Of a stretch of DNA of 64,000 nt, positions 7,354 through 63,153 are shown piece by piece. Below the pieces are notes generated by a model. That model saw only the letters and a program-made list of their open reading frames with translations, was not told the DNA's origin and searched no databases. The stretch spans positions 132,582 to 196,581 of IMG/VR virus record IMGVR_UViG_3300030329_003470, one strand, 5' to 3'. The number at the start of each line of letters is the position of its first letter. Positions within the stretch are counted from its first letter, which is position 1. The stretch is from a virus. The position numbers were made by a program, and so were the translations under genes.

Positions 7354-7362
7354 ATTGTATAT

Positions 7363-7641
7363 TTAAAAGTATACAATAAGGTGTCTAAATAATGCTGTCG
7401 CCAGCATAGTTAATAATATAGTGTTTAAAACAATTAATGCTCTGTCGTGCCATTTGAATCCAACGTATAACCAACCTGCTGTTCCTAATGCTGAAAAATA
7501 AACATCATAAATTTTAGGTACTTCTTCAACAGATCTACATAATACAGCAAGACATATTAAAATTACAGATACCCATTTTACGTACCAAGTGCTGTCGTGT
7601 AATGGTGTAACTTTTTTTATACTATTTTGTGTATTGTTCAT
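7363..7641 (-). CDS. Small membrane protein (DUF6552-like)
   Basis: Three hydrophobic segments; WYVKW, GW.YVG..WHDRALIVLN pattern. Confidence 0.65.
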   Translation of the reverse strand: MNNTQNSIKKVTPLHDSTWYVKWVSVILICLAVLCRSVEEVPKIYDVYFSALGTAGWLYVGFKWHDRALIVLNTILLTMLATALFRHLIVYF

Positions 7642-23465: not shown

Positions 23466-23702
23466 TTAGATCAACCCTGCTAATTTTTGGATACGTTTTA
23501 TTTCAACGTCGTCTGACTCTTCAACTTGATTTGCCTTCATTATTTGGTTAGGACCATCGGCAAATGCTTCTATTTTTGCAAGTCCTCTACTACCAGCACT
23601 GCTAGGCGATTTAATTTGTTCACCTGCGGTAATATGTCCTCTTTGACGCATTTTGGTAACGTCATCTAAGTATTGGTGGTAGTTGTAAGGAATACTGCTC
23701 AT
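23466..23702 (-). CDS. Small putative head-associated protein ending in KRIQKLAGLI
   Basis: ORF track; TAAATA-N6-ATG. Confidence 0.65.
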   Translation of the reverse strand: MSSIPYNYHQYLDDVTKMRQRGHITAGEQIKSPSSAGSRGLAKIEAFADGPNQIMKANQVEESDDVEIKRIQKLAGLI

Positions 23703-23711
23703 ATGCAGTAT

Positions 23712-24563
23712 TTATTTTTTTTCTGCTGGGTCTAAATCGTTTGTAAACTTATCTTCTGCAGGTTCTACTGGTAGTTCTATTTCTTCGCCGCCTTCGTCAA
23801 ACTCTTTGTCTAACATAGGCACTTCGCCTGTTTTATCATCTTCTTCGTCTTCTTCGTCGTCTTTTGATTCTGCATCTTGTTTTACTAGATCATTCAATGA
23901 CGGTTCAGGCCTGTCTTTTTCTTGTACTACTTCTTCAGGTGCTTCTGCCTTTTCTGCGTCTGCAATTATTTCTGTAGTTTCTGGAGTTTTAACAAGAATG
24001 CTTTTTTGTTCTTCATTGTAAACTGCTTCATTGTCTGAGAAAGTGTTGTATAATTCAACAAGTTGAGACTCTTCTGCGTTTTTAATATATTCTGCGATAT
24101 CTTTTGCAATAACTTCTCTAAATGATTTTGAGTCATAAGTTTGTTCTTCTTTTTGTTCTGCTTTTAATTCTGCTAATTGTGTTTCTAGTTCAGCAATTTT
24201 ATCTAATCTTTTGCTTTCTTCGTTTACTGCTTTTTTAATATTAGTTGCTATTGAATCATCTGCATCTGATTCTTTAATTGCTTTTGTAATGTCTGATTCT
24301 TTTTTAGGTTCTTCTTCTTTTGTGATAGACTCAACTAATTTTTCTGCTTTTTCTGAAACTTTTGGTGCTTCTGTGTATTCTTTAATACCTGCTAATCTGG
24401 CAATGTCTGCTAATGAAATATCTTTGTCATCAAGGATTTTTGGCTCTTGTTTAGCGGCTTCCATTAGTGATGCTCTTTCTTCTTCAGGAGTTATATTACT
24501 CATTGCGTTCAAACGAGCAACTAGATCCGCGAAACTATTGTCTGTTGATTTATTACGTGCCAT
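23712..24563 (-). CDS. Acidic scaffold/core-like protein
   Basis: Very E/D/K-rich, helical, repeated (L/I/V)xE sites; perfect TATAAATA upstream. Confidence 0.55.
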   Translation of the reverse strand: MARNKSTDNSFADLVARLNAMSNITPEEERASLMEAAKQEPKILDDKDISLADIARLAGIKEYTEAPKVSEKAEKLVESITKEEEPKKESDITKAIKESDADDSIATNIKKAVNEESKRLDKIAELETQLAELKAEQKEEQTYDSKSFREVIAKDIAEYIKNAEESQLVELYNTFSDNEAVYNEEQKSILVKTPETTEIIADAEKAEAPEEVVQEKDRPEPSLNDLVKQDAESKDDEEDEEDDKTGEVPMLDKEFDEGGEEIELPVEPAEDKFTNDLDPAEKK

Positions 24564-24568
24564 ATGAG

Positions 24569-24576
24569 TATTTATA
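24569..24576 (-). promoter_or_regulatory. T4-type late promoter TATAAATA, 5 nt from ATG
   Basis: Exact match to T4 gp55 consensus. Confidence 0.75.
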
Positions 24577-24588
24577 ATTGTTACAAAT

Positions 24589-26253
24589 TTATTTAAGGCG
24601 TTGATTTAGTAGTATAGCAAGTTTTGACTCGTATGCCAAGCCTTCAGTTGGCATAAACTTACTATATTTGTCCTGTAGATACTTGACTTGGTTTAGATCC
24701 TTACCAATATCTAGTCGTAGTTTAGCATCTTTTAAATCTTTTTCAATCATTTTAGCAAGTTCATCGTTACCTGCATCTTGTGCCATTTCTAATGCAGTAT
24801 TCATTGCCTGGATTGCTGGAACCTGATTATTAATTGCATCTTGTATTGATCCAACACCTGCCAATCCTGCCACAAATACTCCTGCCATGGCCAAACTTTT
24901 TGCCCAGTCTTTCAAACCTTCTTCTAGTTCTGCTTCATTTTTGGGTTTACCATGCTTGTTGTGTTGTGCCCAAGCAATGGCATATGGTGCTGATTTATCT
25001 TTGAACTTTTTTTTTAATGCTTTTACTTGATCTTCTCTGCCTGGAGGTGCTTTTTCGTCTACTTCTTTTCTATTTTCTTTTGCCAGTTCTTTTTCAACTT
25101 CATTTACTCTTTTAGATAATATTCTCATCATGCCAGGTTTTGTATCAATGTCATCTAATTTTGTTTCTTTGGCTAGTATTTCGTCAATGTGTTTTTGCAC
25201 TATGCCTGCGTGTTTCTGTATGACGCCTGAGTCCAGTTCTTCCCTGTAGGGATTCAATTTTTGGTATTCTTCGTAGTTGTATGCACCTTGTAAATAATCT
25301 GCCGCTTTGTTTAATTTGCTTTGCACCCAACCTTCTAGGTCATCACCTGGTTTAATCATAGATGCTAATTCAATTGCATACTTGGCAGTGTGATACAATG
25401 TGCTTTTGCTCATGTGTCCCTCGCCTGCGTCTTCCGAAACTGATTCATCCATATTTTGTAGGTATTCAGAAGCCATTTCTAACTTACCATCGTCATTAAA
25501 ATCTGAACCCATAACTTTATCCAAGTCGCTCTTCATAGCAGTTGTTATTGGAAGATGTTCTTTGTTGTTAATTTTGTCATAAAAGTCATCGTCTGCCTGT
25601 TCGGCATCGTACATAGTGTCATATCCGTATTTTTTAAGTGCCGCTTCTAATTCTTTTTCTTCGATACCGTCTGTTCCAACACCAGTGCTTAATCTGTACT
25701 TCATATATCCTAGCACTAATGGGTCCATGTTGTTTCCAAAGTAACCATCATATTTTTTGTGTATCATTTGCAAGCCTTTTTTCTGTTCATCTGTCAGAGA
25801 GCCTGCGTCTTCGTCAAACTTGCCAATCTCTTCTTGGTCTCTGCCTGTCTGGTCTAGGAATTTCAAATCCTTTGCCGTTACATCGTTTTCACCTTTATCT
25901 TCACCGTATGAGATTGTGTAGATGCCTTCGTCGTCATCTGTGTAGTCCACAATCCTCACGATCCTACCTGATTTTATTTCTCTTGCATAGTCACCAATCT
26001 GTTCTCTTGATTCTGTCAAGCCACCGTCATCATATAGGCCTGAATCTTGACCTTGCATATAGCCGTGTACTTTTTTAACATAGTCACCTGCTAGATCAAT
26101 TTTCTTTTGAACCCATGCTTCCATTTCTGCACGGTCATCAATTAGTTTGTGCAGTTTGATTGCGTGTTTGCCAATTTTCATTATTTGGTTCAACGCCATA
26201 CTTGCTTCGTATGTGTCGGGTTTTACTGGCTCATGAAACTCTTTAATTTTCAT
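24589..26253 (-). CDS. Modular putative internal head protein (MKIKEFHE...)
   Basis: Start refined to ATG 26253; internally duplicated ~55-aa module; xxE junctions. Confidence 0.6.
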   Translation of the reverse strand: MKIKEFHEPVKPDTYEASMALNQIMKIGKHAIKLHKLIDDRAEMEAWVQKKIDLAGDYVKKVHGYMQGQDSGLYDDGGLTESREQIGDYAREIKSGRIVRIVDYTDDDEGIYTISYGEDKGENDVTAKDLKFLDQTGRDQEEIGKFDEDAGSLTDEQKKGLQMIHKKYDGYFGNNMDPLVLGYMKYRLSTGVGTDGIEEKELEAALKKYGYDTMYDAEQADDDFYDKINNKEHLPITTAMKSDLDKVMGSDFNDDGKLEMASEYLQNMDESVSEDAGEGHMSKSTLYHTAKYAIELASMIKPGDDLEGWVQSKLNKAADYLQGAYNYEEYQKLNPYREELDSGVIQKHAGIVQKHIDEILAKETKLDDIDTKPGMMRILSKRVNEVEKELAKENRKEVDEKAPPGREDQVKALKKKFKDKSAPYAIAWAQHNKHGKPKNEAELEEGLKDWAKSLAMAGVFVAGLAGVGSIQDAINNQVPAIQAMNTALEMAQDAGNDELAKMIEKDLKDAKLRLDIGKDLNQVKYLQDKYSKFMPTEGLAYESKLAILLNQRLK

Positions 26254-26254
26254 A

Positions 26255-28039
26255 TTAATTAAAACCAAAATGTGTTACTTCTGGATACTTTGCTATAATT
26301 TTTCTTGCTAGTTCGTTATGATGTTTTACTTGTCTATTATCCCAACCCTCAGGTTTACCGCCACCTATCATAGTTGCTCCTCCTCCAGATCTATCAACTG
26401 TTGTTGGAATTTCTTGTGATGGTTTATCAATATTTTTTTGCAACCATTGTGTAGTTCTTGCTATGAATTCTTTTGCTGGTACAGGTGGTTGATTGTCCTC
26501 AAAGTCTGGATTATAACCCAGTGTGTCAAGGAACTGTCTCATACTTGCGTTGCTCATGTATGGTGTGTCTAGTGGTTCATCGTTTTGCCATCCGTCTGGG
26601 AAAGTCCAAGTCATTTGTTTTTCGTCTTTTGGATCTTTGTAATAAGGTAACATTGATGCACCTTCTCCAAGTCCTGCTAATTTTGTAATTCTGTTTAGTT
26701 CTTGGTTTTCGTTTGCTCTTTTTAATGTATCAGCAACTTCTGGATGTTTTGATAATCCTATTGCAATCGCTTCAATATTTTTTACAGCACTTGTCATATC
26801 GTTTGCATATGTTTTTGCATATGCTTTTGCTTTTGCTATTTGACCAAAAGTAAATTTTTCGCCTGCGTCTTCTCTAAATTTGTCATCTAACCATTCATCA
26901 AAATCTTCTGAATTCATGAAGTCTTGCCAAGTTTTAAATCTTGATTGTATTTCTTTACTTGATGCCCACATACCTCGAGCCGCATCTGCTCTTTCGGCAT
27001 CTGCACTTGGTTCTGATTCTTGTGCAACAGGTTGGCCTTTCATTCTTGCATTTTTAATACCTGCTTTTTCTATTTCTTCTGGTTGTTTTATAACAACAAA
27101 TCTACCACTTGTATCTTGGTCATCAAATTCATATCCAACAGCAGTCATTAAATCTCTAATTGCAAAGTTGTGATCTGATGATCCAAAACCTTCGTCTTCT
27201 GGCCAGTCACTATATTTTTCTTCAACTTCAGCGGCCGCTTCTTTCCATTTGTGTTTTAATAAATCCCATTCTTGAACAGTAATAAACTTTCTCATAATTG
27301 CCATTCTTAAAAGTTCCATGCCTGAGCCAAATGGTGCGTCTTCTTTAATAAATGCTTCTTTAAGTAAACCTAAGTCTATAAGTCTATCTGCAATCCATTC
27401 ATCTGGCATTCCTGTTCTTGCTTTTTGAACACCATATGGCATTTCATCAGGATCACTTGAAAAATAAGCAAATAAATCACTAAAAGCCTCTCCACCATAT
27501 TCAATATCGTATGTACTTTTAACACCGTGTCTGTCTAATATTGCTTTAACGTCCATTGTTGTTTGGTCTTCATTAGTTACTGATTCATCTTTAATTAAAT
27601 CCTGTTGGTGTTTTGCTAATTCACCTGGAGAATCAAAACTTCCTGTATGTTTGCCGTGTCTATAAGAATGGAACTTGCCATCTTTGTGTCTTGCGGCAAG
27701 TCCGTATTTGTTCATGCCTCTGTCTGTGTTATCTTCGCCATCTGTTAAATCTTTTTGTGGTTTCATTAATGATAGATAACCTTCTTGGTCACCGTACATT
27801 TTTTTGAATATCTCTGGATTATGATCTGCTATTTTTTTCATTACATACTCTCTTGGAGCAGTATCTGACTTTTCTATGTGCAGTGCCAAAGATTTAAGCA
27901 TATCTTTATCTAATAGGTCTGCTGATTTAATAAACATACCATAGTCCATTGAATCTGCACCAAGTTCTCTAGCATAGTTTCTAATTACTCTTGATGCTAG
28001 ATTTGAACCTTTATCTTCTTTAAATTCACTAAATCTCAT
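26255..28039 (-). CDS. Modular putative internal head protein (MRFSEFKE...)
   Basis: CTS-like N-terminus; junctions LIKDES, VTNED, FIKED, KFRED; ITKLAGL motif. Confidence 0.6.
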   Translation of the reverse strand: MRFSEFKEDKGSNLASRVIRNYARELGADSMDYGMFIKSADLLDKDMLKSLALHIEKSDTAPREYVMKKIADHNPEIFKKMYGDQEGYLSLMKPQKDLTDGEDNTDRGMNKYGLAARHKDGKFHSYRHGKHTGSFDSPGELAKHQQDLIKDESVTNEDQTTMDVKAILDRHGVKSTYDIEYGGEAFSDLFAYFSSDPDEMPYGVQKARTGMPDEWIADRLIDLGLLKEAFIKEDAPFGSGMELLRMAIMRKFITVQEWDLLKHKWKEAAAEVEEKYSDWPEDEGFGSSDHNFAIRDLMTAVGYEFDDQDTSGRFVVIKQPEEIEKAGIKNARMKGQPVAQESEPSADAERADAARGMWASSKEIQSRFKTWQDFMNSEDFDEWLDDKFREDAGEKFTFGQIAKAKAYAKTYANDMTSAVKNIEAIAIGLSKHPEVADTLKRANENQELNRITKLAGLGEGASMLPYYKDPKDEKQMTWTFPDGWQNDEPLDTPYMSNASMRQFLDTLGYNPDFEDNQPPVPAKEFIARTTQWLQKNIDKPSQEIPTTVDRSGGGATMIGGGKPEGWDNRQVKHHNELARKIIAKYPEVTHFGFN

Positions 28040-28194
28040 TTTACAACCTCATATCTACTGTGTCTACAAACTTCTATTTCGTATTCTCTACCATCGTAAT
28101 CTTGTTCTGTTCTAAACAAAGGACCATCATGTGCGTCATTTCCGCAGTTCAAACATTTTACTATCCATTCTTTTTTAAGAACAAGTGTTTCCAT
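28036..28194 (-). CDS. Small Cys/His protein (52 aa, METLVLKK...CLNCG...H...CRH)
   Basis: Manual translation; ATGA/TAATG overlaps at both ends. Confidence 0.65.
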   Translation of the reverse strand: METLVLKKEWIVKCLNCGNDAHDGPLFRTEQDYDGREYEIEVCRHSRYEVVK

Positions 28195-28478
28195 TATGGG
28201 TAGTTCCTTTTCATTAACGGTCCACCAAACAAACTTACTCCTGATAATTTATGAGCACCTTTGGCTGTACCATCTGGATTTTTTGGTTGTACAATTTTAG
28301 GTAGTTTAGGTGCTTTTGTACCAGAACGTCCTGGTGTGCCTGTGTATGACTTTTTAAATCTATCATCACCTGCCGCAACGTGTGGATTATTAAGTGCCGC
28401 TATGTTACCAGCCGCCGTAGCACCCGCAGTTGCTTGTTCGTTGTTAATTCTACGTATAATTATTTCGTTTATCTTCAT
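28194..28478 (-). CDS. Small protein MKINEI... with ATAGATAAGNIA motif
   Basis: ORF track; TAAATA-N9-ATG. Confidence 0.7.
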   Translation of the reverse strand: MKINEIIIRRINNEQATAGATAAGNIAALNNPHVAAGDDRFKKSYTGTPGRSGTKAPKLPKIVQPKNPDGTAKGAHKLSGVSLFGGPLMKRNYP

Positions 28479-29208
28479 GCTTATTTGTATTTATTAATGC
28501 TGGCTGGCGTTTTAACCAAAAGAAATAAGGGTCTACAAGTATCTGTCCAAACGTTGGGTGTGGTTCGTATGAACTGTGATTATTACATCTTAACATCAAT
28601 ACACGATGCTTTTTTACAATTGGTATATCTATACACGTTGAACCACCAATCCAGTCATTCTCGTATTGTGTTACAAAAGGATAATCTGGTCTATCACCAG
28701 GATCTGCTTCTGGTTTACTTTCAAAATTATCTCCGTATTTTTTTCTAGTTTTTTCTCTTAATTCTTTACAAAGTCTTTTTAACAACGTATCGTTTTCAAA
28801 AAGTTCCGCCGGAATGATACCCACTTTATGAAGTTTTGCCTCTGATAATTTTGTCATAAATCCATTTGAATAATTGTTATCGTGTATTTCAAAGTTTAAC
28901 GATATTTTTTTATTACTGTCATCTAAATTTAGATGATATAACCATATTTTATTTGGTAATTGTATCTCTGGATCAAGTGGTGCAGTTGTTATCTTATTAA
29001 GTCTACGTAGAACCCAGTTTGAATTCTTATGCACATCTGTTGCTACACCGTTTATTATGTTGGCAAATCGTTGTTCAACATTTGGTATATGACTTATATT
29101 TTTATCGAGAACAATCTCGTCAATGAACCTGTTATCTAAAAATAATTTTAATGTGCTTGATTTTTTATAATGTTTGTAAAATAAAGACAATATAAGAACA
29201 TACTTCAT
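28450..29208 (-). CDS. Hypothetical protein, accessory-type
   Basis: ORF track; no motif recognised. Confidence 0.65.
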   Translation of the reverse strand: MKYVLILSLFYKHYKKSSTLKLFLDNRFIDEIVLDKNISHIPNVEQRFANIINGVATDVHKNSNWVLRRLNKITTAPLDPEIQLPNKIWLYHLNLDDSNKKISLNFEIHDNNYSNGFMTKLSEAKLHKVGIIPAELFENDTLLKRLCKELREKTRKKYGDNFESKPEADPGDRPDYPFVTQYENDWIGGSTCIDIPIVKKHRVLMLRCNNHSSYEPHPTFGQILVDPYFFWLKRQPALINTNKHEDKRNNYT

Positions 29209-29225
29209 ATATGTAATTATTTGTA

Positions 29226-29447
29226 TTATCTAAGGTGTAATTTTTTTACGTTCTTGTATTCGTCGCCAGGTTTGACGTCTTTAGTGGTGTTTTGTTTAGT
29301 AATGATTCCAACACCTGCGGCATCTTCATTACCTCTATTGTTGCCAACGTTGATAGGCATCCAATGACTGTTTGCTTTTCGTAATCCTAATGCCTTTGCA
29401 GTATGTGGCATCGCTATCCAGTCTGTTATAATTTCATTTATTTTCAC
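29226..29447 (-). CDS. Small protein (GTG start, MKINEIIT...)
   Basis: Start refined to GTG 29447 overlapping upstream TGA; same N-terminal tag as neighbours. Confidence 0.65.
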   Translation of the reverse strand: MKINEIITDWIAMPHTAKALGLRKANSHWMPINVGNNRGNEDAAGVGIITKQNTTKDVKPGDEYKNVKKLHLR

Positions 29448-30061
29448 CTTACAAATGCTCCAATTCTTCCATGTACATCTGGATACTCTCGATATTTGAA
29501 TCCAGTTGGTGCAGTGGTATCTTCGCCTTCCCATACAGGTATAAATTCAGTTACACCTCCTTCAAAGTCTGGATTGTGTCTTAAATGCACTTCAATTAGT
29601 TTACCACCAATGTATTCGCAATTAACAACGTCATGTTCTCCTACTACTTCTTTTATTACGTCTGGCATATCTACTGTGTCTACAGTTCGTACCCATCGGT
29701 CCCATTTAGTAAATGTATCTTCTTTTTTAAATCCTTCAACGCATAAAGTTTGTTCGCCTTTTTTATAATCTACAGATAAATGTCTGCCATCAAACCATTC
29801 ACACCAAAAAAATCCTGGAGGTATATGTGTTGTAGTTTGTTCAATAAACATTTTTTTTGCACCAATACCTAATCCGTATGCATTAACAACAGGACGTACA
29901 CAGTAGTTTCCGGACTCAGGTACATCTATACCTGCAGGTCCACACTTGTAACCCATTTTACTTGCTAGAATTAATTTGTCTGTAACCCACATAGTATCTG
30001 GGTTTGGATTTTGCCAGTATTGTTCTTCTGGATCTAATTTTGCTACTTCGTATACTCTCAT
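29444..30061 (-). CDS. ATP-grasp-like protein (MRVYEV...)
   Basis: VRP..N..G.G.G, WCEWFDG.HLSVD, EYIGGKLIEVHLR pattern. Confidence 0.6.
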   Translation of the reverse strand: MRVYEVAKLDPEEQYWQNPNPDTMWVTDKLILASKMGYKCGPAGIDVPESGNYCVRPVVNAYGLGIGAKKMFIEQTTTHIPPGFFWCEWFDGRHLSVDYKKGEQTLCVEGFKKEDTFTKWDRWVRTVDTVDMPDVIKEVVGEHDVVNCEYIGGKLIEVHLRHNPDFEGGVTEFIPVWEGEDTTAPTGFKYREYPDVHGRIGAFVR

Positions 30062-30453
30062 TTTTTTGTTTTAACATTTTTGGCTTTGCCACGTCTATTT
30101 GGATTTGGATCTTTTCTACGTTTCCTTGCCGCGGCAGATTTTCTGCCTTTTTTACCTAGTGCGTGTGCTTTGCTTCTTGGTAAACATTTAGGTTTACCTT
30201 CTTTACTTGAACCTCTTGCACAGTCACCTCTAATTTTTCCGTCTGGACCAAAACGAACCCATTTGTCTTTGAACCATTTTTTAAGATTTTCATTTAATGA
30301 TTCATTAAAAACTAAATTGCCACAGTTTACACAAATATCTATATCTTCTCGTTTAACACAGTTAGGTACTCTTTTGCCGAACATGGTTTTCATGCCCTTC
30401 TTTTCGTAACCTTTCCAACAACGTGTGCCTTCTGTTATTTCGTATATCTTCAT
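30058..30453 (-). CDS. Basic Cys-rich two-module protein (MKIYEITE-CWKGY...; LNE-LKKWFKDKW...)
   Basis: Start refined to ATG 30453 (ATGA overlap). Confidence 0.7.
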   Translation of the reverse strand: MKIYEITEGTRCWKGYEKKGMKTMFGKRVPNCVKREDIDICVNCGNLVFNESLNENLKKWFKDKWVRFGPDGKIRGDCARGSSKEGKPKCLPRSKAHALGKKGRKSAAARKRRKDPNPNRRGKAKNVKTKK

Positions 30454-31208
30454 TTCTTTTTCTTTCCTGATTTCATGTTTGCACACCAGTGATACATTTT
30501 TCCTTTTTCGCCACCGGCTTTTTTTGCTTTTGCTCTTAATGATGACACAGATCCTTTACAACTTGCACCTGATCGTTTTACTCTGCCTGGACGACTTTTA
30601 CCTTTAACTTTTCCATCTGCAAAGTTTTCATTTAAATGATGTCTTGCTTGTTTGCCTACGTTTTGTAATGCTTCTGCCCATACACTCATATTAGTAACGA
30701 ATGTTTTAACCATTCCAATAGTTTCTGCATCTTTTAATATTTCGTTTCTACCCTGTGCGGCTGATTCAATATTACAACTTGGTGGCACAGTAAATCCTAA
30801 CATAGTTGCAAAGTTATAACAGTTTCCGTGTATGTGTTGAAATCCATCTCCAGAACCTGATACTATATCTCCAAACACTTTGCCATACATTGGTTTGTAT
30901 TTGTTTACAATACTCCACTCATCAATAAAATCCATTCTTTCAATTATTGCTTGTATGTGACATGAATGTCCGCCCCACCAAATAGGTGTAGCAAATATAA
31001 CACCATCCATATCAAACATTTTACCAATTACAGGACGTAGTCCATCGTCAATATCTTTTATTGAACCTTCATAATCTAAATCTCTGATTGTAACAACTTC
31101 ACACTCGTGGCCTAATTTTTGAAATGCCACTTGAACCATTTGGCATAGTGTAAATGTATTTGATTCTGTGTCCGGTGTTAAACTACCGTTGCAAATTAAA
31201 AATTTCAT
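30450..31208 (-). CDS. Flavodoxin-like / NAD(P)H-dependent FMN reductase fused to basic C-terminal module
   Basis: ICNGSL, VIFATPIWWG, IERMD, SGSGDG; C-terminal K-rich module after HLNE. Confidence 0.8.
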   Translation of the reverse strand: MKFLICNGSLTPDTESNTFTLCQMVQVAFQKLGHECEVVTIRDLDYEGSIKDIDDGLRPVIGKMFDMDGVIFATPIWWGGHSCHIQAIIERMDFIDEWSIVNKYKPMYGKVFGDIVSGSGDGFQHIHGNCYNFATMLGFTVPPSCNIESAAQGRNEILKDAETIGMVKTFVTNMSVWAEALQNVGKQARHHLNENFADGKVKGKSRPGRVKRSGASCKGSVSSLRAKAKKAGGEKGKMYHWCANMKSGKKKK

Positions 31209-31390
31209 TTCTTCGACTTATTACCCCAGTTCTTGGCACCTTTTTTACGACACTGCACCAAGGCTCCTGAAGCATATGCCGAAGGCCAAACTTTATATCT
31301 TGATTTTACTTTGTGATAGCAGGCATCTTTCTTTTCTGCTAGTTTCTCGAATTCTTCTTCTGTAATTCCTGTTACTTCGTTTATCTTCAT
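31205..31390 (-). CDS. Small basic protein (MKINEV...KDACYHKVKSRYKVWPSAYASGALVQCRK)
   Basis: ORF track. Confidence 0.75.
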   Translation of the reverse strand: MKINEVTGITEEEFEKLAEKKDACYHKVKSRYKVWPSAYASGALVQCRKKGAKNWGNKSKK

Positions 31391-31393
31391 GTG

Positions 31394-31774
31394 TTACCAC
31401 TTTCTGCATGACCAATATCTTGCTTTTGTTTTTGGTCCTGGGTTTGCACAGTTGTGACGTGCTCTAAAACTTTTTCTTGCTTTTGGATTAGACTTTCTAA
31501 TTCTCATAGTTTTTCTTTTTGCTGATGTACCGCCATGTCCAAAATTAACTTTTTTAACGTTGCCTGTTTTAGGATCTTTCACATAAACTTTAAATTTTTT
31601 AACATCACCTCTCATAGGTTTGTTAAGTGGAACTTTTCTTCCTTGATATTCTGCTTCAAATAAATCTTTTTCGTCAATACTATAAGCAAGGAATCCATAT
31701 TCTTCGTGAAAATCTTGATTATCTTTTAATGTTATTTCATTGGATATTTTATTAACTATTTCGTTTATTTTCAT
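31394..31774 (-). CDS. Small basic protein (MKINEI...AEYQGRKV...SFRARHNC...ARYWSC)
   Basis: ORF track; TAAATA plus AAGGA SD upstream. Confidence 0.75.
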   Translation of the reverse strand: MKINEIVNKISNEITLKDNQDFHEEYGFLAYSIDEKDLFEAEYQGRKVPLNKPMRGDVKKFKVYVKDPKTGNVKKVNFGHGGTSAKRKTMRIRKSNPKARKSFRARHNCANPGPKTKARYWSCRKW

Positions 31775-31794
31775 AATGTATTCCTTTTACGTAT

Positions 31795-32367
31795 TTATTT
31801 TGTATCCTCGCTTCTTAAAGTAATTACTCCACAGGCTAATCTATCGCCTGCATTACCGGTTTTTAAACTTTCTGCGTCAGTACCCTGCCCTAAATCGTCT
31901 TGTTTTGCGTGTACAACAATACCTCTGCCTACAACTGATCTGTCGCCAATTAAATCAACTCTGTGTGCTTTAATTGTAAATTCAGCAACACCATCATCAC
32001 CTGCATTTATATTGCCTAAATCTCCCACGTGTCCATCGTCTATTCCTCCGTGGTCAACATTGTCCGGATTATAATGAGCACCCATAGATTCACAACCTTT
32101 GCTCATGTCACCAAATTCGTGTATGTGAAATCCGTGATCGCCTTTGGTTAATCCTGTTACACGTCCTTTGATTAGAGTTTTTGTGCCAGGTTTTTGCATG
32201 AATAATATAGTGCCTTTTACTGTATCAGAATGCATTAAGTCGCACTGTGCTATAACAGTTTCTTCTGCTTCTGTTAGTTTATTAACAGATTCACAGGCAC
32301 ACTCAGATGCTTTTGTCCTAGGACAACTTGATTCAATATAGTTAATTTTATCGATGAGATCTCGCAT
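31795..32367 (-). CDS. sodC: Cu/Zn superoxide dismutase with short non-signal N-terminal extension
   Basis: [38 protein letters not shown]; start refined to ATG 32367. Confidence 0.95.
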
Positions 32368-32377
32368 ATGCGAGTAT

Positions 32378-32587
32378 TTATTTAGATTTTGGCATTGGGT
32401 TTTCACCTGTTAGTTTAGGTTTTGCGAACCACAGTTTAAACCATTCATCTGTGCCAGGACGGATATTATGTTTTCTTTGATATTCTGCTTTTTTTGTTCC
32501 ATGAATAGAAAGGTTTTCTCCCATAGAATCTTCTTTTGGTAAATTATCTATGCCTGCTAATTTTTTTAAACGTTCTAAATCTTCCAT
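32378..32587 (-). CDS. Small protein ([10 protein letters not shown]...[11 protein letters not shown])
   Basis: ORF track. Confidence 0.7.
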
Positions 32588-32754
32588 GATCGTAATTGTT
32601 CTTTGGTAGGCTTATGATCTTTTAATTTTTCTACTTTGCCGCCTTTGGCTAAAAACTCTTGCATTTTTTTATCTAACTCTCTTTGTTTTTCTTGTGGTGT
32701 TTTTTCTATGTCACCTGATGCGTAGGCTCTATTGATCCCGCTGAATTTAGGCAT
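32575..32754 (-). CDS. Small protein with EFLAKGGKV motif (SutA RNAP-binding-domain-like), 59 aa
   Basis: Manual translation; fills gap with overlaps at both ends. Confidence 0.6.
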   Translation of the reverse strand: MPKFSGINRAYASGDIEKTPQEKQRELDKKMQEFLAKGGKVEKLKDHKPTKEQLRSWKI

Positions 32755-33940
32755 TTAAATATTCCTTTATTTCTGGCATAATACTACTTATCGTATTTTT
32801 CCTATGTTTATCTCTTCTATTAATTTCACTTACAAATTCTTTCCAATTTGTCGTGTCTTTTTTATTTTTACACATAACAATCAATTTGTCAATTGTTTTG
32901 TTAGTGTTAGCATTTGCAAAAGGTAAATTTTTAACTTTTTCTAATCTTTGTGTTGCTTCATCTAATAAATCTTGTGGTAAGTTTGTGGGTTGAAAATAAT
33001 CAGGACTTCTCAGAATATAAAGATAATTTAAATAATTGTTTTGTGATATCCAATTCAATAATTTGTCTATTACCATTACGTTGATATTGCTTACAACTGT
33101 ATTAATAGTAAATTTTATTTTTTCTTTTTTTAATACTTCAAATGTATCTAATATTTTGCTCCATTGGCTAGGAAATCTAACATATTCATTGTCTGTGTTG
33201 TATGCATCTATACTGATAGTTAATTTTGTGTTTTTAAACTTTCTAAATATATCTAACCAATCTTGGTCTGGTAAAATTGTTCCATTTGTTTGAATTTTTA
33301 AAGTTATTTTTTTTGTTAACTTCTCATCAGTTTGTTTTAATATTTTTTTAATTTCAGGAACCAACAATGTTTCCCCACCTCTTATATCTAAAAATAAAAG
33401 ATTTTTTGACAAAATAGATTCAACTGCTTTTGCACTGTGTACTACAAACTTTGTATAATCAATTTGAGGATTTTCACTTATACCTAACATTTTGTTCTCA
33501 GAATGATATTGACTGCTATCACGTTCATTACAAGTCAGGCATTTTAAGTTACACAAATTGCTAATATGAACTTCAACATATAATGGATCTGATGGTTTAT
33601 CAAGTTTTAGACTTTTAAGTATTTGTGGATAATATTCAATATCTTGATCGTTTTTTATATAATAATATTGGTTATATTGTTTTCTATGACTTTCACCTGT
33701 TTTTGCTTCTTGATAATAACACACACGACAGTCGTCTATTTTTTCACCATTTAACATTTTATTTCTTAAATTTTTTACGTATGCTGATTGAAAAAACTCT
33801 TTTTGTGATTCTGATTTTATGTTACTGTTTCTTTTTAGGATATTACAACAAACATTATTTTGTCCATCAACACGTGTCGTAACGTTTACAAATGGTTGTA
33901 TACAGAAATGTTTATTTGGTTTGTTTTCCATAGTTGTCAA
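32747..33940 (-). CDS. Radical SAM protein with N-terminal SPASM/twitch-like cluster (paralog 4)
   Basis: FCIQPF...VCC, CRVC, CNLKCLTC, IRGGET. Confidence 0.88.
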   Translation of the reverse strand: MTTMENKPNKHFCIQPFVNVTTRVDGQNNVCCNILKRNSNIKSESQKEFFQSAYVKNLRNKMLNGEKIDDCRVCYYQEAKTGESHRKQYNQYYYIKNDQDIEYYPQILKSLKLDKPSDPLYVEVHISNLCNLKCLTCNERDSSQYHSENKMLGISENPQIDYTKFVVHSAKAVESILSKNLLFLDIRGGETLLVPEIKKILKQTDEKLTKKITLKIQTNGTILPDQDWLDIFRKFKNTKLTISIDAYNTDNEYVRFPSQWSKILDTFEVLKKEKIKFTINTVVSNINVMVIDKLLNWISQNNYLNYLYILRSPDYFQPTNLPQDLLDEATQRLEKVKNLPFANANTNKTIDKLIVMCKNKKDTTNWKEFVSEINRRDKHRKNTISSIMPEIKEYLNA

Positions 33941-35078
33941 GGCCTTGCTTTACTTTACTTAATGGATCTCGGTTAGCCTGGTATAAAATTCCATAGCCTC
34001 CTGCGCCTTGCCAACGTTGTATATTAACTGGTCTGTCGTCAATTAGTATGTTTGGTGTGCCAGATGCTTTGTCTTTTGCATAACTTTCTTTACGTCCAGT
34101 TACAATTATTTCATCTGGTTGTTCAATGTTGTTTTGTATCCACAGTTTTTTGTATTTTGCTGAGTTTTCGTGATCACCTCTCAACGGTGAAGTGTTAATT
34201 GAAAATTTTCCACCTGTGAATTCTTTAACCATTGATATTAATTCGCCTGCACTACCAAATATAGGTAGTGTTGCAAAAAAATCTGTGCCTGTTATTCTAT
34301 CAATAACTTCTTTTTTTAAATCTTTTGTTTTGTCTGACGTTAATTGTTTCCAGTGTTCTACACCATACATTTTTTCTACACCGCCAAAGAAGTCAGCCAA
34401 GACACCATCCATATCTAAATAGACGGTTGGTTTACCATCTGTCATATCTTCATTATACAACTTTTTGTTGTTTTCTGCAACCTCTACTCCAAGAGCGTCT
34501 TGTATCTTATTGTAAATTAATTCACTTTGGTCACCGCCCATAGCAATTTTGGAAAATTCATGCCATTGTCCTTTAAGTGCTAAATCTCTTGCCTTTGATG
34601 CTGATGCTCCTGCAACACCTTCTTCGTCTGGATCTCTTTGTCCAGCATTTACTACTTTAATATCATCAAAGTTATAAAGATCGTTTCCTTGCTTGTCAGG
34701 TTTACCATTGTATTGATTTAGTAATTTTTCAAACTCGCCAACTCTATCTGAACCAGCAACCATAATAAGTCTTGTTCTACCTTGTGCTTGAATTACTTGT
34801 AGTGCTTTTATAATTGTGTTTGCAGTTGGATCACCTACTGCTAGTTTTGGATAAAATTGCTGAACATATGCTTGTTTCTCTTGAAACGTTAATGGATCAG
34901 TTTTGTTATTCTGTTTGTGTGATAAAAAAAGATATGCTTTACCGTTGGCTTTTTCTGCCGTAGATAAAACAGTTTCTATTAACTTTTGGTGTCCTATTGT
35001 GGGAGGATTAAATCGGCCAAATGCAAAAACGGCTGTTGCTCGATCGTCCTCTCTAAGAAACAATTCCTTGAGTAACAT
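33912..35078 (-). CDS. Fusion: HIGH-family nucleotidyltransferase + HAD 5'(3')-deoxyribonucleotidase-like domain
   Basis: FGRFNPPTIGH, MVAGSDR, SAS.AR; then YLDMDGVLADF and LIDD...W...GG.GI. Confidence 0.85.
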   Translation of the reverse strand: MLLKELFLREDDRATAVFAFGRFNPPTIGHQKLIETVLSTAEKANGKAYLFLSHKQNNKTDPLTFQEKQAYVQQFYPKLAVGDPTANTIIKALQVIQAQGRTRLIMVAGSDRVGEFEKLLNQYNGKPDKQGNDLYNFDDIKVVNAGQRDPDEEGVAGASASKARDLALKGQWHEFSKIAMGGDQSELIYNKIQDALGVEVAENNKKLYNEDMTDGKPTVYLDMDGVLADFFGGVEKMYGVEHWKQLTSDKTKDLKKEVIDRITGTDFFATLPIFGSAGELISMVKEFTGGKFSINTSPLRGDHENSAKYKKLWIQNNIEQPDEIIVTGRKESYAKDKASGTPNILIDDRPVNIQRWQGAGGYGILYQANRDPLSKVKQGLDNYGKQTK

Positions 35079-35409
35079 CGTATTCGCCTTGTTCTATATT
35101 TTCTTTTTCTCTGTCTGCTATAACTTGAGCAACTTTTAATCTTGTTTCTTTTGGAAACATATCACTAACATCTTGTCCTTGTGTGCCAAACTCTTGTACG
35201 TATTTTCTTGCGGCATCATCAACCAAGTACATCCATAATTTAATTACTTTTTCATGGTCGTACACATTACGTTTCATTTTTCTTTTAATATTTGTTATAA
35301 TGGGCATAAAACGTCTACGATATAAATCTTCGTCGTTCATTATAAACGAGTCTAGTTCGTTTACTGCGTCACTGTCCATTGCTTCATTTAAAAATTCAGA
35401 TGCTCTCAT
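35053..35409 (-). CDS. Putative head-associated protein (MRASEFLNE...)
   Basis: ORF track; TAAATA-N7-ATG. Confidence 0.7.
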   Translation of the reverse strand: MRASEFLNEAMDSDAVNELDSFIMNDEDLYRRRFMPIITNIKRKMKRNVYDHEKVIKLWMYLVDDAARKYVQEFGTQGQDVSDMFPKETRLKVAQVIADREKENIEQGEYDVTQGIVS

Positions 35410-35422
35410 ATAAGCATATTTA

Positions 35423-35905
35423 TTAGTATAGATTCTCTAAAAGCCACATATAAAATGGTGATGTAAATGTAAATGTCCATGTGCCGTTATGGCCCATTTG
35501 AGTAACATTTTTAAGTGTTTTTGGTAGTTCAGTACCTGCTTCTTTTTGTTGTGTTGCCCATGGTTCTGGATATGATGGTTCATAAACACCTTCAAACACC
35601 AAACCACCAATATCAATTTCATCAATTTCTATTGATTTGATATGTAGTAATTGGTCTTTTAAAATGTCACCTTTTTCGTTAACAATAGTTTGGTTATTTG
35701 TTTTTCCACCACGTTTCAAAACTAAATTGTAACTTTTTTCTTCTTCAAATTCGTGTTCAAACTCAATTAATTTTGGTTTATCTTCTGTTTCTGATATTTC
35801 TGCTGAAAATTTAGAATCGTTATTAATTAAAATTTCAACTGTTGGTATCTTATTCCAATGTGTTGCAAATAATTCTATTTTAAATTTTAGTTTTTCTGTT
35901 GCCAT
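35423..35905 (-). CDS. Hypothetical beta-rich protein
   Basis: ORF track. Confidence 0.7.
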   Translation of the reverse strand: MATEKLKFKIELFATHWNKIPTVEILINNDSKFSAEISETEDKPKLIEFEHEFEEEKSYNLVLKRGGKTNNQTIVNEKGDILKDQLLHIKSIEIDEIDIGGLVFEGVYEPSYPEPWATQQKEAGTELPKTLKNVTQMGHNGTWTFTFTSPFYMWLLENLY

Positions 35906-36081
35906 GTAAATTCTAATCCTGCAGTATGTCCTATATACGGTTTATTTACGTCCTGTCGGAACATCTCAATAGCAATTTGAGTACCTTCTACAACCACTTT
36001 CATATATTTGTCGTGTTGTTGAAGCACTTCTGCAGTTTTAGTTTTACCGTTGTTTGTGCAAGTGATTTCTATTTGTTCCAT
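35887..36081 (-). CDS. Small hypothetical protein
   Basis: ORF track; TAATG overlap. Confidence 0.65.
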   Translation of the reverse strand: MEQIEITCTNNGKTKTAEVLQQHDKYMKVVVEGTQIAIEMFRQDVNKPYIGHTAGLEFTWQQKN

Positions 36082-39000
36082 TATTTTTGGTCCTTTAAAG
36101 GTATAAACATATCTGTTTTCATATCATAAACTAAACCGTGTTTAGTTACTTGATCTACGTTAATGTTGTACAAGTTCTTTTTCATTTTGCCATTATCATC
36201 TAAACAATTTTTATTTTTAGCAAAACTTAATTTCTTATCTAAAAATTTTATTCCTGTATCTGGAATACCACAAGATAAAGCAAGTTTTTTAACATAATTA
36301 AATCCAACTGCTATACCGTCATTGCCATCAACACCAGCAATATCTTGTCTGTGTTCTATACTAAAATTAAACGATGCATCCATATCGTCTTTTGATGTGT
36401 GTGTATAAAAGAAGCCAATATTTTTTTCTTTGTATGTTTGAGATAAATCTGAATTAATATTTGTATAATTTATTGTTCCATCTAAATTAACACTTTCGGC
36501 TACTTCCAAATCCATCGAACCCGATGATATATGATTTGGAAGTGAGAACGACCAACCGAAAGTATTGTGCGTATCTTTGTGTATTTCATACGCCAATTTG
36601 TAAGATTCTGTTTCAACGTTATTAAATCCTTTTATCAAACTATTATTAGTAGTATTAATATTTGAAAATCCTTTTGAATAATCAAAACTTAAAACATTAT
36701 TTCCTATTTGATAACTTACACCAAGTTGTCCATAATTTGTTGTGTTGTTATCACCTACTGCTAATATTCCATTTGAATAATTACCTAACCAACTATCTTG
36801 TTCGTTTAATTGTCCTACAGTAGTTCTTAATCCAAAATTATTACCTATCCAAAATGTTTTACCTATGTTTGCTGAATAGTCACCATTTCCGCCCTGACCA
36901 GTAAATATTCCAAAGTTCATATATCCTAAATCATATTCTCCACCTTGTGCAAATGATCCATAAGAATTATTAAATGGTAGATAAGAATACCCATGCATCA
37001 TTGCGTTTATATCTGAATTTTTTCTTTTATCTTGAATAACAACATTCGAACCTAAGTTAATGTAATAGTCTCTATCAAAGTCATCTAGAACCATAATTTT
37101 TACATTAGATAAATTTGCTATTGAAGAACTACTACCAGAAGCATAAGAGTTACTGATACTACTTGTATTACCATCTGCTCTTCCATCTACAGGAATTACT
37201 AACACACCTTGTGGTTCTGTTGCCTTATCAAAATCAACAACACCTTGTCCGTGTACATTGACATCATATCCGCTTATAACTTCTTTGTTTGCAGTAGACG
37301 TTACAAGTTTAACTAGATTCTCTCCTGTCATGTGTGGCCACATTTGATGTAGTATTGCAATTTGACCTGTAACAATAGGTGCCGCCATTGACGTACCGTA
37401 CAACACTTGATATCCTCCGTCACCGTTAGTTGAATATGTAGCACCTGGAGCCAATACATAAAAGTCTGAAACTTTGTATTTGTCATTGCATTTATTATCC
37501 ACAATATTCATGCATAAGTGGCCTGCTTGGTTGGACCAACTATAAAGGTTATTGTTTTGATCAACACCACCAACAATTAACATCTTACCACCTAATATTA
37601 GATTGCCATTTTCATCAACAACTGTTGCAAAGAAACCTGGGTTTGCCGCTACTGAAAATCCTTGGTTACCTGCAGAGTTTACTATAATCATGCCTTTGTC
37701 TGTAACTGCTTTCCATATATCTGTTGTTTGTTCGTTATAAAATTTATTTTTAGTGTAATCTATATCTCTATCACCGTCATAATAGTATGTTCCATCACCT
37801 AATGCTTTAGTATCTTTTCTAAAGGCAATATCGTAATTACTGTTTGCAGAAAGATTACCTACAACTGCACCATTATTTGCCGCTTCTACAAAACCGTCTG
37901 CCGCTAAAGCAGTATCAACTGATCTTCCATTTCCAATCTTAATTACGATTGCTTTAGAATCAAAAGCAATACCGTGCATACCATCTCCGTCTTTTTTAGC
38001 AATTATTGTTCCTAAAACGTGACTACCGTGATAGAATGTGTTAGATCCTGATTGGAATCCAGTATCATCTATACCTGTATTTGTTTTATCTATTGTAGAA
38101 TGAATTTGCCCATCAAATTCTTTATGGTCTTTATCATAACCTGTATCTGCAACTGCAACTATAGAACCTTTACCTGTCCAGCCTTTTGCGTATGCAGAAC
38201 TAACATTAATTTGTTTGAATTCTTTAAATCCTTCGTTGTGTCCATGATATTCATTTGTTTCGTATGTGGTTTTATCTGAATTAAAATTAGGAGTTGTATT
38301 TCCAACATATTTCTTTTTATCTTCAACACCTTTCCATGGATCTTCTTTTTCTTCTTTAGATTCTTCTTTTTTCTCTTCTTCTTTAGATTCTTCTTTTTTC
38401 TCTTCTTCTTTAGACTCCTCTTTCTTTTCTTCCTGTTTTTCCTCTTCTTTACTTTCCTCTTCTTTACTTTCCTCTTCTTTACTTTCCTCTTCTTTACTCT
38501 CTTCTTGTTTTTTCTTCTCTTCTGCTTCTTTCTTCTCTTTTGCTTCTTTTTTCTCTTTTTCTATTTTAGTTTTTTTATCGTTTACAAAAGGATCTACTGT
38601 GTTGCTTTTTTCTTCTTTAATAAGATCTTGTGCTTTTTTATCACTTGCAACTTTGTTAAATTCTGTTAATGTTAGTTTTTGTCCTTGTGATACTTTTTGT
38701 ATAACCGGTTTAACATGATTCTTCAAATACAATAATGCCGCATGAGCATTTTTATAATCATCACTATTGTATATGGATAACTTTGTATCTGCATCTTGAG
38801 ACTCTATAAGTGTTTGTGTTTGTAACCAAAGTGCTTCTGCTTGGTCTAACATTGTAAGTAGTGTATTTGCTTTTGATATATCTGCTTCATCTGGATCTGT
38901 CATTACTGAAGATAAACTTGCAAAATTACCACTTGATATTGTAGAATTAAATCCACTTAATAAATTTGAATACGAACTGATAATAGATTCACTACCTACT

Positions 39001-39125
39001 AAATTTGATAAATCGTCTTCAACAAACTCTTGTATGGCTCCACCTGCACCACTACCACCGCCACCACAAGCAGTAAGAGTAGTTGCCATTGCACCAGAAA
39101 GTAATAAGTTCCTTAATTTACTCAT
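36081..39125 (-). CDS. Lipoprotein S8 subtilisin-like protease with C-terminal beta-barrel-like region
   Basis: Lipobox LTAC; triad VAVADTG / HGSHVLG / GTSMAAP; alternating aromatic beta-strands at C-terminus; start refined to ATG 39125. Confidence 0.88.
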   Translation of the reverse strand: MSKLRNLLLSGAMATTLTACGGGGSGAGGAIQEFVEDDLSNLVGSESIISSYSNLLSGFNSTISSGNFASLSSVMTDPDEADISKANTLLTMLDQAEALWLQTQTLIESQDADTKLSIYNSDDYKNAHAALLYLKNHVKPVIQKVSQGQKLTLTEFNKVASDKKAQDLIKEEKSNTVDPFVNDKKTKIEKEKKEAKEKKEAEEKKKQEESKEEESKEEESKEEESKEEEKQEEKKEESKEEEKKEESKEEEKKEESKEEKEDPWKGVEDKKKYVGNTTPNFNSDKTTYETNEYHGHNEGFKEFKQINVSSAYAKGWTGKGSIVAVADTGYDKDHKEFDGQIHSTIDKTNTGIDDTGFQSGSNTFYHGSHVLGTIIAKKDGDGMHGIAFDSKAIVIKIGNGRSVDTALAADGFVEAANNGAVVGNLSANSNYDIAFRKDTKALGDGTYYYDGDRDIDYTKNKFYNEQTTDIWKAVTDKGMIIVNSAGNQGFSVAANPGFFATVVDENGNLILGGKMLIVGGVDQNNNLYSWSNQAGHLCMNIVDNKCNDKYKVSDFYVLAPGATYSTNGDGGYQVLYGTSMAAPIVTGQIAILHQMWPHMTGENLVKLVTSTANKEVISGYDVNVHGQGVVDFDKATEPQGVLVIPVDGRADGNTSSISNSYASGSSSSIANLSNVKIMVLDDFDRDYYINLGSNVVIQDKRKNSDINAMMHGYSYLPFNNSYGSFAQGGEYDLGYMNFGIFTGQGGNGDYSANIGKTFWIGNNFGLRTTVGQLNEQDSWLGNYSNGILAVGDNNTTNYGQLGVSYQIGNNVLSFDYSKGFSNINTTNNSLIKGFNNVETESYKLAYEIHKDTHNTFGWSFSLPNHISSGSMDLEVAESVNLDGTINYTNINSDLSQTYKEKNIGFFYTHTSKDDMDASFNFSIEHRQDIAGVDGNDGIAVGFNYVKKLALSCGIPDTGIKFLDKKLSFAKNKNCLDDNGKMKKNLYNINVDQVTKHGLVYDMKTDMFIPLKDQK
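38341..38570 (-). repeat. In-frame tandem repeats encoding KE-rich linker
   Basis: 4 x 15 bp (KEEES) at 38440-38499 and 2-3 x 27 bp (KEESKEEEK) at about 38352-38430. Confidence 0.9.
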
Positions 39126-63152: not shown

Positions 63153-63153
63153 A

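Follow-up and report, generated by a model that had tools for sequence, protein, structure and literature searches.

The final 64,000 nucleotides of a virus contig (positions 132,582 to 196,581 of IMG/VR record IMGVR_UViG_3300030329_003470; this whole stretch is called the window, and positions are those of the window unless the contig or another locus is named) were analysed for a group of genes whose products begin with a common short leader. In this jumbo phage with a T4-type head, positions 23466-35409 form a late, highly plastic island, the products of which are most likely (rough probability 0.68) taken up into the prohead. An initial annotation of the sequence had proposed that a T4-like capsid-targeting leader is grafted here onto diverse proteins, and this core idea was supported by the T4-type head, by late-promoter boxes, by the resemblance of the leaders to those of T4, by the virions of relatives and by the portability of the leader.

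Leaders of the island

Genes were called on the contig (196,581 bp, 34% G+C, the window being its final part) with a heuristic of codon usage, ribosome-binding site and start codon, which gave 216 genes; in the island region the minus strand holds nearly every gene. All eleven N-termini of the initial annotation were recovered on the minus strand at 26253, 28039, 28478, 29447, 30061, 30453, 31390, 31774, 35078 and 35409, with the variant at 32367. The start at 29447 is a GTG that overlaps the stop of the upstream gene as GTGA, and it is supported by the orthologues in related loci L004 and L014, which have ATG at the same place. The leader-bearing genes and their operon neighbours are listed below (aa, amino acids; an arrow marks the predicted cut after Glu; the basis of the assignment is given in brackets).

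35053-35409, minus strand: 118-aa protein, leader MRASEFLNE↓A (N-terminus; no Pfam or PHROG match)
33912-35078, minus strand: fusion of a cytidylyltransferase-like domain and an NT5C nucleotidase, 388 aa, leader MLLKELFLRE↓D (Pfam, tblastn)
32747-33931, minus strand: radical S-adenosylmethionine (SAM) enzyme, 394 aa, no leader, inside the operon (Pfam)
31795-32367, minus strand: Cu/Zn superoxide dismutase (SOD), 190 aa, leader followed by ↓S (Pfam)
31394-31774, minus strand: 126-aa protein with leader MKINEIVNKISNE, an extension of about 40 residues and a basic C-terminal domain (homologue comparison)
31205-31390, minus strand: 61-aa basic Cys module, leader MKINEVTGITE↓E (module mapping)
30450-31208, minus strand: flavin mononucleotide (FMN) reductase, 252 aa, no N-terminal leader, C-terminal Lys/Cys-rich module after HLNE↓N (Pfam, module mapping)
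30058-30453, minus strand: 131-aa protein of two Cys/Lys-rich modules, leader MKIYEITE↓G (module mapping)
29444-30061, minus strand: minimal ATP-grasp-fold protein, 205 aa, leader MRVYEVAKL (AlphaFold, Foldseek)
29226-29447, minus strand: 73-aa protein, GTG start, leader (M)KINEIITDW (N-terminus, module mapping)
28194-28478, minus strand: 94-aa protein, leader MKINEIIIRRINNE and then QATAGATAAGNIA (alignment with relatives and with the capsid protein)
26255-28039, minus strand: 594-aa mosaic protein, leader MRFSEFKE↓D (comparison with relatives)
24589-26253, minus strand: 554-aa mosaic protein, leader MKIKEFHE↓P, translationally coupled to the 594-aa gene (comparison with relatives)

The earlier labels of Cu/Zn SOD and of cytidylyltransferase-like domain plus NT5C were borne out by Pfam, and the ATP-grasp label held at the level of the fold only (AlphaFold predicted local distance difference test (pLDDT) score 89.5; Foldseek E-value about 1e-4, template-modelling score about 0.4-0.5), all top Foldseek matches in the PDB being ATP-grasp enzymes. 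Pfam and PHROGs searches with the 554-, 594-, 94-, 73- and 118-aa proteins gave nothing or only 'unknown function', the 131-aa protein found only viral hypothetical clusters in the ESM Atlas, and neither tblastn of the 594-aa protein and of the SOD nor megablast of the whole cluster gave a match among 50,697 phage records. The 126-aa protein has a basic C-terminal domain that is common among marine phages and is labelled 'HVA1 family' in some records.

The leader, written as the regular expression ^M[KRL]..E[FILVM], matched 10 of the 17 genes in 24589-35409 and 2 of the 199 elsewhere (12/216 in total; Fisher P = 2.4e-11), an enrichment over other genes that agrees with the initial annotation. 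The N-terminal composition of the other genes predicts about 0.06 matches for the cluster, and shuffling of residues 2-31 of all proteins gave a mean of 0.9 matches genome-wide with a maximum of 6 (1000 shuffles). The two outside matches are an 80-aa acidic protein encoded directly downstream of the portal gene, which is the position of T4 gene 67, and a 148-aa acidic protein in the tail/structural block. A DNA cassette had been described at the 5' ends of several of the genes; it was present at 28478, 29447, 31390 and 31774 and, with one mismatch, at 30453, but the other leaders differ in codons. Because these remaining leaders keep the order basic, hydrophobic, any residue, Glu, hydrophobic with other codons and residues, the shared feature is the peptide and not the DNA. 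The claim that an xxE site usually follows stood for 6 of the 10 leaders, which have a strict hydrophobic-x-E at residues 8-11, and failed for the other four.

A wider set was compiled from the contig and 24 related loci (577 distinct N-termini, 72 of them distinct leaders; loci are referred to by L numbers). The leaders, present in 16 of the 24 loci, follow the consensus M-[KR]-[IALFV]-[NK]-E-[IFLV]-[ILT]-x-E, and hydrophobic-x-E was found at residues 7-16 in 74% of them versus 25% of the 505 other N-termini. In 37/72 leaders the motif ends at residue 8 or 9, most often with G, D, E or A after it. The SOD at 32367 carries another leader class, itself conserved.

Two candidate explanations of the N-termini were rejected. 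In a Sec, Tat or lipoprotein signal peptide the basic N-region must be followed by a hydrophobic core of some 7 residues or more, and the leaders have Glu at residue 5 and at residues 8-10. Simple paralogy does not fit, since the bodies are unrelated by BLAST, Pfam and PHROGs while orthologues with 40-60% identity keep the leader.

Head module and late-promoter boxes

The contig holds part of a jumbo-phage genome, and its gp20, gp21 protease and gp23 genes mark the head as T4-type. Its completeness was given as 55% by CheckV, which suggests a full genome of about 350 kb. Of five related leader-bearing contigs, which are 22-34% fragments, one holds the head module. The head genes stand in T4 order; they encode a gp21 protease, a Gp23-family capsid protein and a portal, and a scaffold-like coiled protein of 354 aa (contig 62525-63589) lies between the gp21 and gp23 genes. 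The prohead protease belongs to the gp21 family (Peptidase_S77, PF03420, 91.7 bits; contig 63591-64220), and on comparison with T4 gp21 both the His of GE(V/L)(D/N)HP and the Ser motif GVSSRG align; these conserved His and Ser we take to be the catalytic residues. The major capsid protein (Gp23 family, PF07068, 273.8 bits) is 68-73% identical to those of the jumbo phages Phosso, Vibrio phage 2.275.O and Pseudomonas phage PA5oct (68% for PA5oct). It reads ...YLSE and then QATAGATSAGNVA, a stretch that aligns with the N-arm of mature T4 gp23, downstream of the T4 cleavage site, and the predicted maturation site is YLSE↓QATAGATSAGN.

With both strands counted, the contig has just 39 copies of the T4-style late box ATAAATA. 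It lies within 60 nucleotides (nt) upstream of 27 of the 216 genes, usually at 13-14 nt, and the genes for sheath, tube and fibre are among these. Six boxes head sub-operons of the cluster, so that at motif level the island is late-transcribed:

35417-35423, minus strand: late box ATAAATA, 14 nt upstream of the start at 35409
32375-32381, minus strand: late box of the SOD gene (motif)
31792-31798, minus strand: late box of the 126-aa gene (motif)
28488-28494, minus strand: late box of the 94-aa gene (motif)
24569-24575, minus strand: late box of the 283-aa gene (motif)
23709-23715, minus strand: late box of the 78-aa gene (motif)

No tagged gene was found behind an early-type TATAAT box in the contig sequence, which, as far as sequence can tell, speaks to the refuting condition named beforehand, a tag equally common on early non-virion proteins. 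Since ATAAATA is rare and occurs almost only 12-60 nt upstream of genes, it could serve as a late-gene marker for the annotation of this lineage.

Comparison with T4 and other head-internal proteins

The T4 leaders were read from the T4 record as MKTYQEFIAE (internal proteins IPII and IPIII), MKTFKEF (IPI), MAKINELLRE (gp24) and MLKEQLIAE (gp22). In T4 IPIII the first ten residues alone are needed for incorporation, residues 4 and 7 matter most for targeting and residues 8 and 10 for processing (PMC9026906), and the T4 capsid-targeting leader alone packages foreign proteins (PMC3012670, PMC9026906). The leaders of the island are laid out as in T4, a hydrophobic i/i+3 pair being followed by hydrophobic-x-Glu, the cutting motif of gp21. 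Most T4-like of the set is the leader at 35409 (MRASEFLNE), which corresponds to the T4 IPIII sequence minus one residue and whose L014 orthologue starts MRAYQFITE↓A; the KINEI leaders resemble the gp24 propeptide, and MLLKELFLRE resembles gp22 and gp24.

A possible link to the prohead protease comes from the 94-aa protein. Its leader is followed by ...NNE and then by QATAGATAAGNIA, which is a capsid-protein-like site, and the orthologues all keep the Glu immediately before A(T/S)AGATSAGN; the family is conserved in at least 11 related loci. Behind its leader the 94-aa protein thus copies the N-arm motif QATAGATSAGN of the major capsid protein of this phage, together with the site at which that protein is predicted to mature.

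Like those of T4 IPI, IPII, IPIII and Alt, the leaders are short, have a basic residue in second place and two hydrophobic residues at a spacing of three, and mostly end in hydrophobic-x-Glu. The bodies are likewise otherwise unrelated and partly basic, the genes lie outside the main head module (as do the T4 ip genes; here the late island stands among replication genes), and a gp21-family protease, a scaffold core and a gp23-type capsid protein are encoded in the same genome. The differences are that the leaders here are diverse, mostly 8-9 residues long and one residue shorter than in T4; that at least 10 tagged genes stand in one island, in contrast to three or four in T4; that the cargo includes SOD, nucleotidyltransferase-nucleotidase and ATP-grasp enzymes; and that leader-like joints occur inside multi-module proteins. 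The T4 internal proteins have no sequence homology to the proteins of the island, whose system is known from sequence only. As for T4 gp24, gp22, gp67 and gp68, the propeptides of gp24 and gp22 are near the KINEI and LLKELFLRE leaders, and the gene at the position of T4 gene 67 is leader-bearing both in this phage and in PA5oct, but these T4 proteins are shell or scaffold, whereas the tagged proteins here are mostly enzymes or small basic modules, and their genes lie a long way from the head module.

The phiKZ-like giant phages are alike in that a diverged gp21 homologue (gp175 in phiKZ, gp245 in SPN3US) cleaves many of their head-internal proteins behind the Glu of a short motif, and in that they package and eject enzymes (PMC5694885, PMC10052503). 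They differ in belonging to another phage lineage with another capsid-protein family. We know of no short shared N-terminal address that has been defined in them.

Virion proteomes of cultured relatives

The virion status of PA5oct proteins was taken from the electrospray ionization tandem mass spectrometry (ESI-MS/MS) flags in its GenBank record; 93 virion-associated products are reported among 461 coding regions, four of which are non-coding RNAs (Lood et al. 2020, PMC7318152). The leader pattern, in the form described below, matched 12 proteins, of which 7 are virion-flagged (base rate 93/457, P = 0.004), and of the seven matches that also have hydrophobic-x-E at residues 8-11 six are flagged (P = 4e-4). 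One of the flagged proteins, gp150, is encoded at the gp67 position and starts MKINDIITE. The PA5oct capsid protein reads ...FLVE and then NASAGATQAGNIA; leader type, C-terminal LAG motif of the scaffold (see below) and type of predicted capsid maturation site are thus shared with the phage analysed here, and the difference is that the PA5oct leader proteins are, as far as compared, not orthologues of the cargo. Leaders, propeptides and N-terminal processing are unmentioned in the PA5oct paper (PMC7318152).

The tagged nucleotidyltransferase is an orthologue of the cyanophage core gene 'cytitidyltransferase' T4-GC190 (41% identity). The copies in S-SM1, S-RIM8, S-SM2 and ACG-2014f start MKKFSAFL(N/T)E↓A, MKSFFQFLSE↓A and similar, the start in S-SM1 being MKKFSAFLNE↓A. 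In purified S-SM1 virions T4-GC190 gave 25 peptide counts versus 18 for the portal, and its neighbours GC1453, 1454, 1455, 425 and 426, in a block between mazG and the primase gene, are also virion proteins (Sullivan et al. 2010, PMC3037559). Two of these neighbours start MNLNEL and MLSFKELQE. Common to both systems are the orthologous nucleotidyltransferase domain, a T4-like leader (10 residues in T4-GC190) and a block of virion genes among replication genes; T4-GC190 differs in a linker of about 90 residues after the leader and in having no NT5C domain, and the leader is not mentioned in PMC3037559. Comparable blocks among replication genes were seen in HTVC008M (105-113 kb, L031) and S-SM1 (145-154 kb, L039); they hold the nucleotidyltransferase, neighbouring small proteins and an S-layer-domain protein, and six S-SM1 genes there encode virion proteins.

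Leader portability and superoxide dismutases

Gain and loss of the tag on orthologues across relatives, a check that the initial annotation had put forward, was seen for the ATP-grasp-fold, 126-aa and nucleotidyltransferase proteins, each of which has homologues with and without the leader. Among 120 database homologues of the 205-aa ATP-grasp-fold protein 13 have the leader, and the other 107 start 8-9 residues later, at a conserved acidic-W motif; in the AlphaFold model of the 205-aa protein residues 1-7 lie outside the fold with pLDDT below 50. The basic domain of the 126-aa protein occurs without the N-terminal extension in gp13 (79 aa) of the pelagiphage siphovirus Aegir, podovirus tblastn matches begin only after the extension, and the homologue in the T4-like pelagiphage HTVC008M has an extension ending in EAE, as here. 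Untagged nucleotidyltransferase homologues were found in Salmonella phage Munch, L016, L019, L020 and L023.

In the Cu/Zn SOD the Pfam domain begins at residue 50 and is preceded by a charged N-terminal extension of 49 residues with no signal peptide; a signal peptide is typical of bacterial Cu/Zn SODs. At exactly the syntenic place L013 encodes an Fe/Mn SOD (7011-7556), and both genes have the late box in common and a homologous leader xLIxxIxxIE. The Fe/Mn SODs of L011 (11875-12525) and L015 (3984-4628) occupy the same place in the island and start with the LAG motif. All four SODs carry an N-terminal extension, of a kind not known to us from cellular SODs, and represent non-homologous replacement at one place. 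That two unrelated SOD families each stand behind an address-like extension argues for selection on the packaged activity, and the exchange of Cu/Zn for Fe/Mn SOD behind one leader suggests that removal of superoxide at or just after entry matters to these phages.

Modules, joints and a second motif

The 554- and 594-aa proteins are mosaics, the segments of which occur in other orders and in other proteins in relatives. The last module of the 594-aa protein (from GASMLPYY) is a stand-alone tagged gene in L005-L010, and the leader MRFQELIE↓GASMMPY of L006 aligns with ...KLAGLGE↓GASMLPY inside the 594-aa protein. Similarly, the leader MRINEVINE↓D of a stand-alone protein in L011 aligns with the internal joint LVFNESLNE↓N of the 131-aa protein, the FMN reductase is joined at HLNE↓N to a basic module common to tagged proteins of relatives, and longer proteins of relatives have the body of the 61-aa protein as their C-terminal module. 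A small mobile module, formed by the last approximately 30 residues of the 73-aa protein (GVGIITKQNTT...KL), is also found within nucleotidyltransferase and NT5C proteins in six related loci. Occurrence of the same motif at N-termini and at module boundaries is more in keeping with a protease and address signal than with an effect of the start codon.

Two enzyme chains of relatives were observed in addition. In L011 (4663-6822) a 719-aa nucleotidyltransferase-NT5C protein has an internal MKINEV leader before its last basic module and looks like a gene fusion with retained leader, or like an internal start. In L020 (6180-8597) the same island encodes another enzyme chain, a protein of 805 aa with a leader-like start (MNIGEV) and NT5C and poly(A) polymerase/CCA-adding head domains.

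A second motif, [LIVM]xx[LIVM]xxLAG[ILV] (the LAG motif), was found in 7 contig proteins versus 0.19 expected (maximum 2 in 300 shuffles). It forms the very C-terminus of the scaffold protein and is internal in the 594-aa protein and in two proteins of 707 aa and 363 aa encoded elsewhere on the contig; the PA5oct scaffold ends with it too (...EELRRLAGIK). The motif may be a capsid- or core-binding helix. The three other proteins with the motif are encoded in the island:

32378-32587, minus strand: 69-aa protein, the N-terminus of which is the LAG motif (motif)
23712-24563, minus strand: 283-aa acidic protein, internal LAG motif, no leader, own late box (motif)
23466-23702, minus strand: 78-aa protein, C-terminal LAG motif as in the scaffold protein, behind a late box (motif)

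Proposed loading of cargo

Targeting, cleavage, retention, injection and a role after entry are what we infer for this phage, as follows. Each cargo protein would begin with the leader M-[KR]-hydrophobic-x-E-hydrophobic-hydrophobic-x-E, usually of 8-10 residues, which by analogy with the T4 capsid-targeting sequence would bring the protein into the scaffolding core before the shell closes. The gp21-family prohead protease would then cut after the Glu of hydrophobic-x-Glu, by which the leader would be removed, and the same protease would separate fused modules at the leader-like internal joints. Left in the head would be the small basic Cys/Lys-rich modules together with the nucleotidyltransferase-nucleotidase, the SOD and the ATP-grasp-fold protein, and perhaps the flavin reductase, retained via its basic tail. 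The retained proteins would probably exit with the DNA at infection and might, if injected, act as the ready-made enzyme kit that the initial annotation had envisaged. The device would be the address-and-cut principle of T4, with a shorter and diverse leader, many more cargo genes, enzyme cargo and internal joints as its new elements; a search of the open literature gave no paper linking a capsid-targeting sequence to cyanophages or to this group of jumbo phages.

Several points weigh against packaging of the island's products. The phage is an uncultured giant ocean phage known from its sequence. The regular expression was derived from this same window; four of the ten leaders in 24589-35409 lack a strict hydrophobic-x-E near the N-terminus; and the radical SAM enzyme, the 252-aa FMN reductase and 59-aa and 52-aa genes of the island have no leader. 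For the PA5oct test the record was assembled, genes were called and the expression was widened slightly (Asp allowed at position 5); the sole full-leader protein without a virion flag has 64 aa, and the flags report presence in particles, not location inside the head or removal of the leader. In S-SM1 the leader-like neighbour SSM1_196 was undetected in virions, and T4-like cyanophages with gp21 encode untagged ATP-grasp homologues.

Alternative explanations

The tagged proteins could instead be components of an assembly-only prohead core, like T4 gp22, gp67 and gp68, with the leader as a propeptide and with the products degraded and expelled, so that no cargo is delivered. We consider this unlikely for the set as a whole. 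The gene at the gp67 position has the same leader, the 554-, 594- and 283-aa proteins are acidic low-complexity mosaics and in this respect scaffold-like, and the LAG motif is common to the island and the scaffold C-terminus; for the acidic mosaics an assembly-only role is possible. It fits the enzymes poorly, as folded proteins such as SOD, nucleotidyltransferase and ATP-grasp are poor scaffolds and the two unrelated SOD families at one place argue for selection on activity, and the PA5oct leader proteins and the S-SM1 orthologue were found in mature purified virions, the latter above the portal in peptide counts.

That the shared start is a feature of nucleic acid or translation (an AT-rich 5' cassette aiding initiation on late mRNA, or a recombination cassette, the peptide having no role) is much less probable still. 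Four or five genes are indeed near-identical over 15 nt, Lys is the second most common second residue genome-wide (30/216 genes) and the island is highly recombinogenic. Such a cassette would, however, not account for leaders that keep the physicochemical pattern with different codons and residues, for the absence of the pattern from other late genes with the same promoter box, for its recurrence inside proteins at module joints or for its prediction of virion proteins in PA5oct.

Least credible of the explanations weighed is a leader that serves as the recognition sequence of the radical SAM enzyme encoded within the operon (32747-33931), in the manner of ribosomally synthesized and post-translationally modified peptides, and not as a capsid address: a homologue of this enzyme was found in 4 of the 24 related loci versus leaders in 16 (the loci are at most 22 kb, and a distant copy is possible), many radical SAM paralogues lie in glycan operons of the contig, the tagged proteins are large folded enzymes and not small precursor peptides, and the leader is similar to the propeptides of T4 head proteins and in PA5oct goes with virion proteins.

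Meaning of the island and neighbouring features

If the products of the island are loaded into the prohead as proposed, the T4 capsid-targeting principle would not be peculiar to T-even coliphages, and each particle of these abundant ocean jumbo phages would carry at least a dozen such proteins, redox and nucleotide enzymes included. A sequence rule for the prediction of virion cargo in uncultured phages would follow, the 'virion-unrelated' enzymes in published virion proteomes (PA5oct, S-SM1) would be explained, and new, naturally diverse leader and joint sequences would be available for the packaging of proteins in phage capsids. More tentatively, leader and hydrophobic-x-Glu joint might together form a plug-in address code that is general among jumbo phages with T4-type heads: anything set behind the leader or between joints would be loaded, cut free and injected, and selection would act on the delivered activities, as with the two unrelated SODs behind one leader. 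In uncultured ocean phages the sequence alone could then reveal the virion cargo and with it functions in first-minute takeover or anti-defence.

Directly upstream of the island and on the same strand, positions 36081-39125 encode a subtilase (Peptidase_S8) of 1014 aa, which begins like a lipoprotein (LTAC lipobox) and contains a long repeat rich in Lys and Glu.

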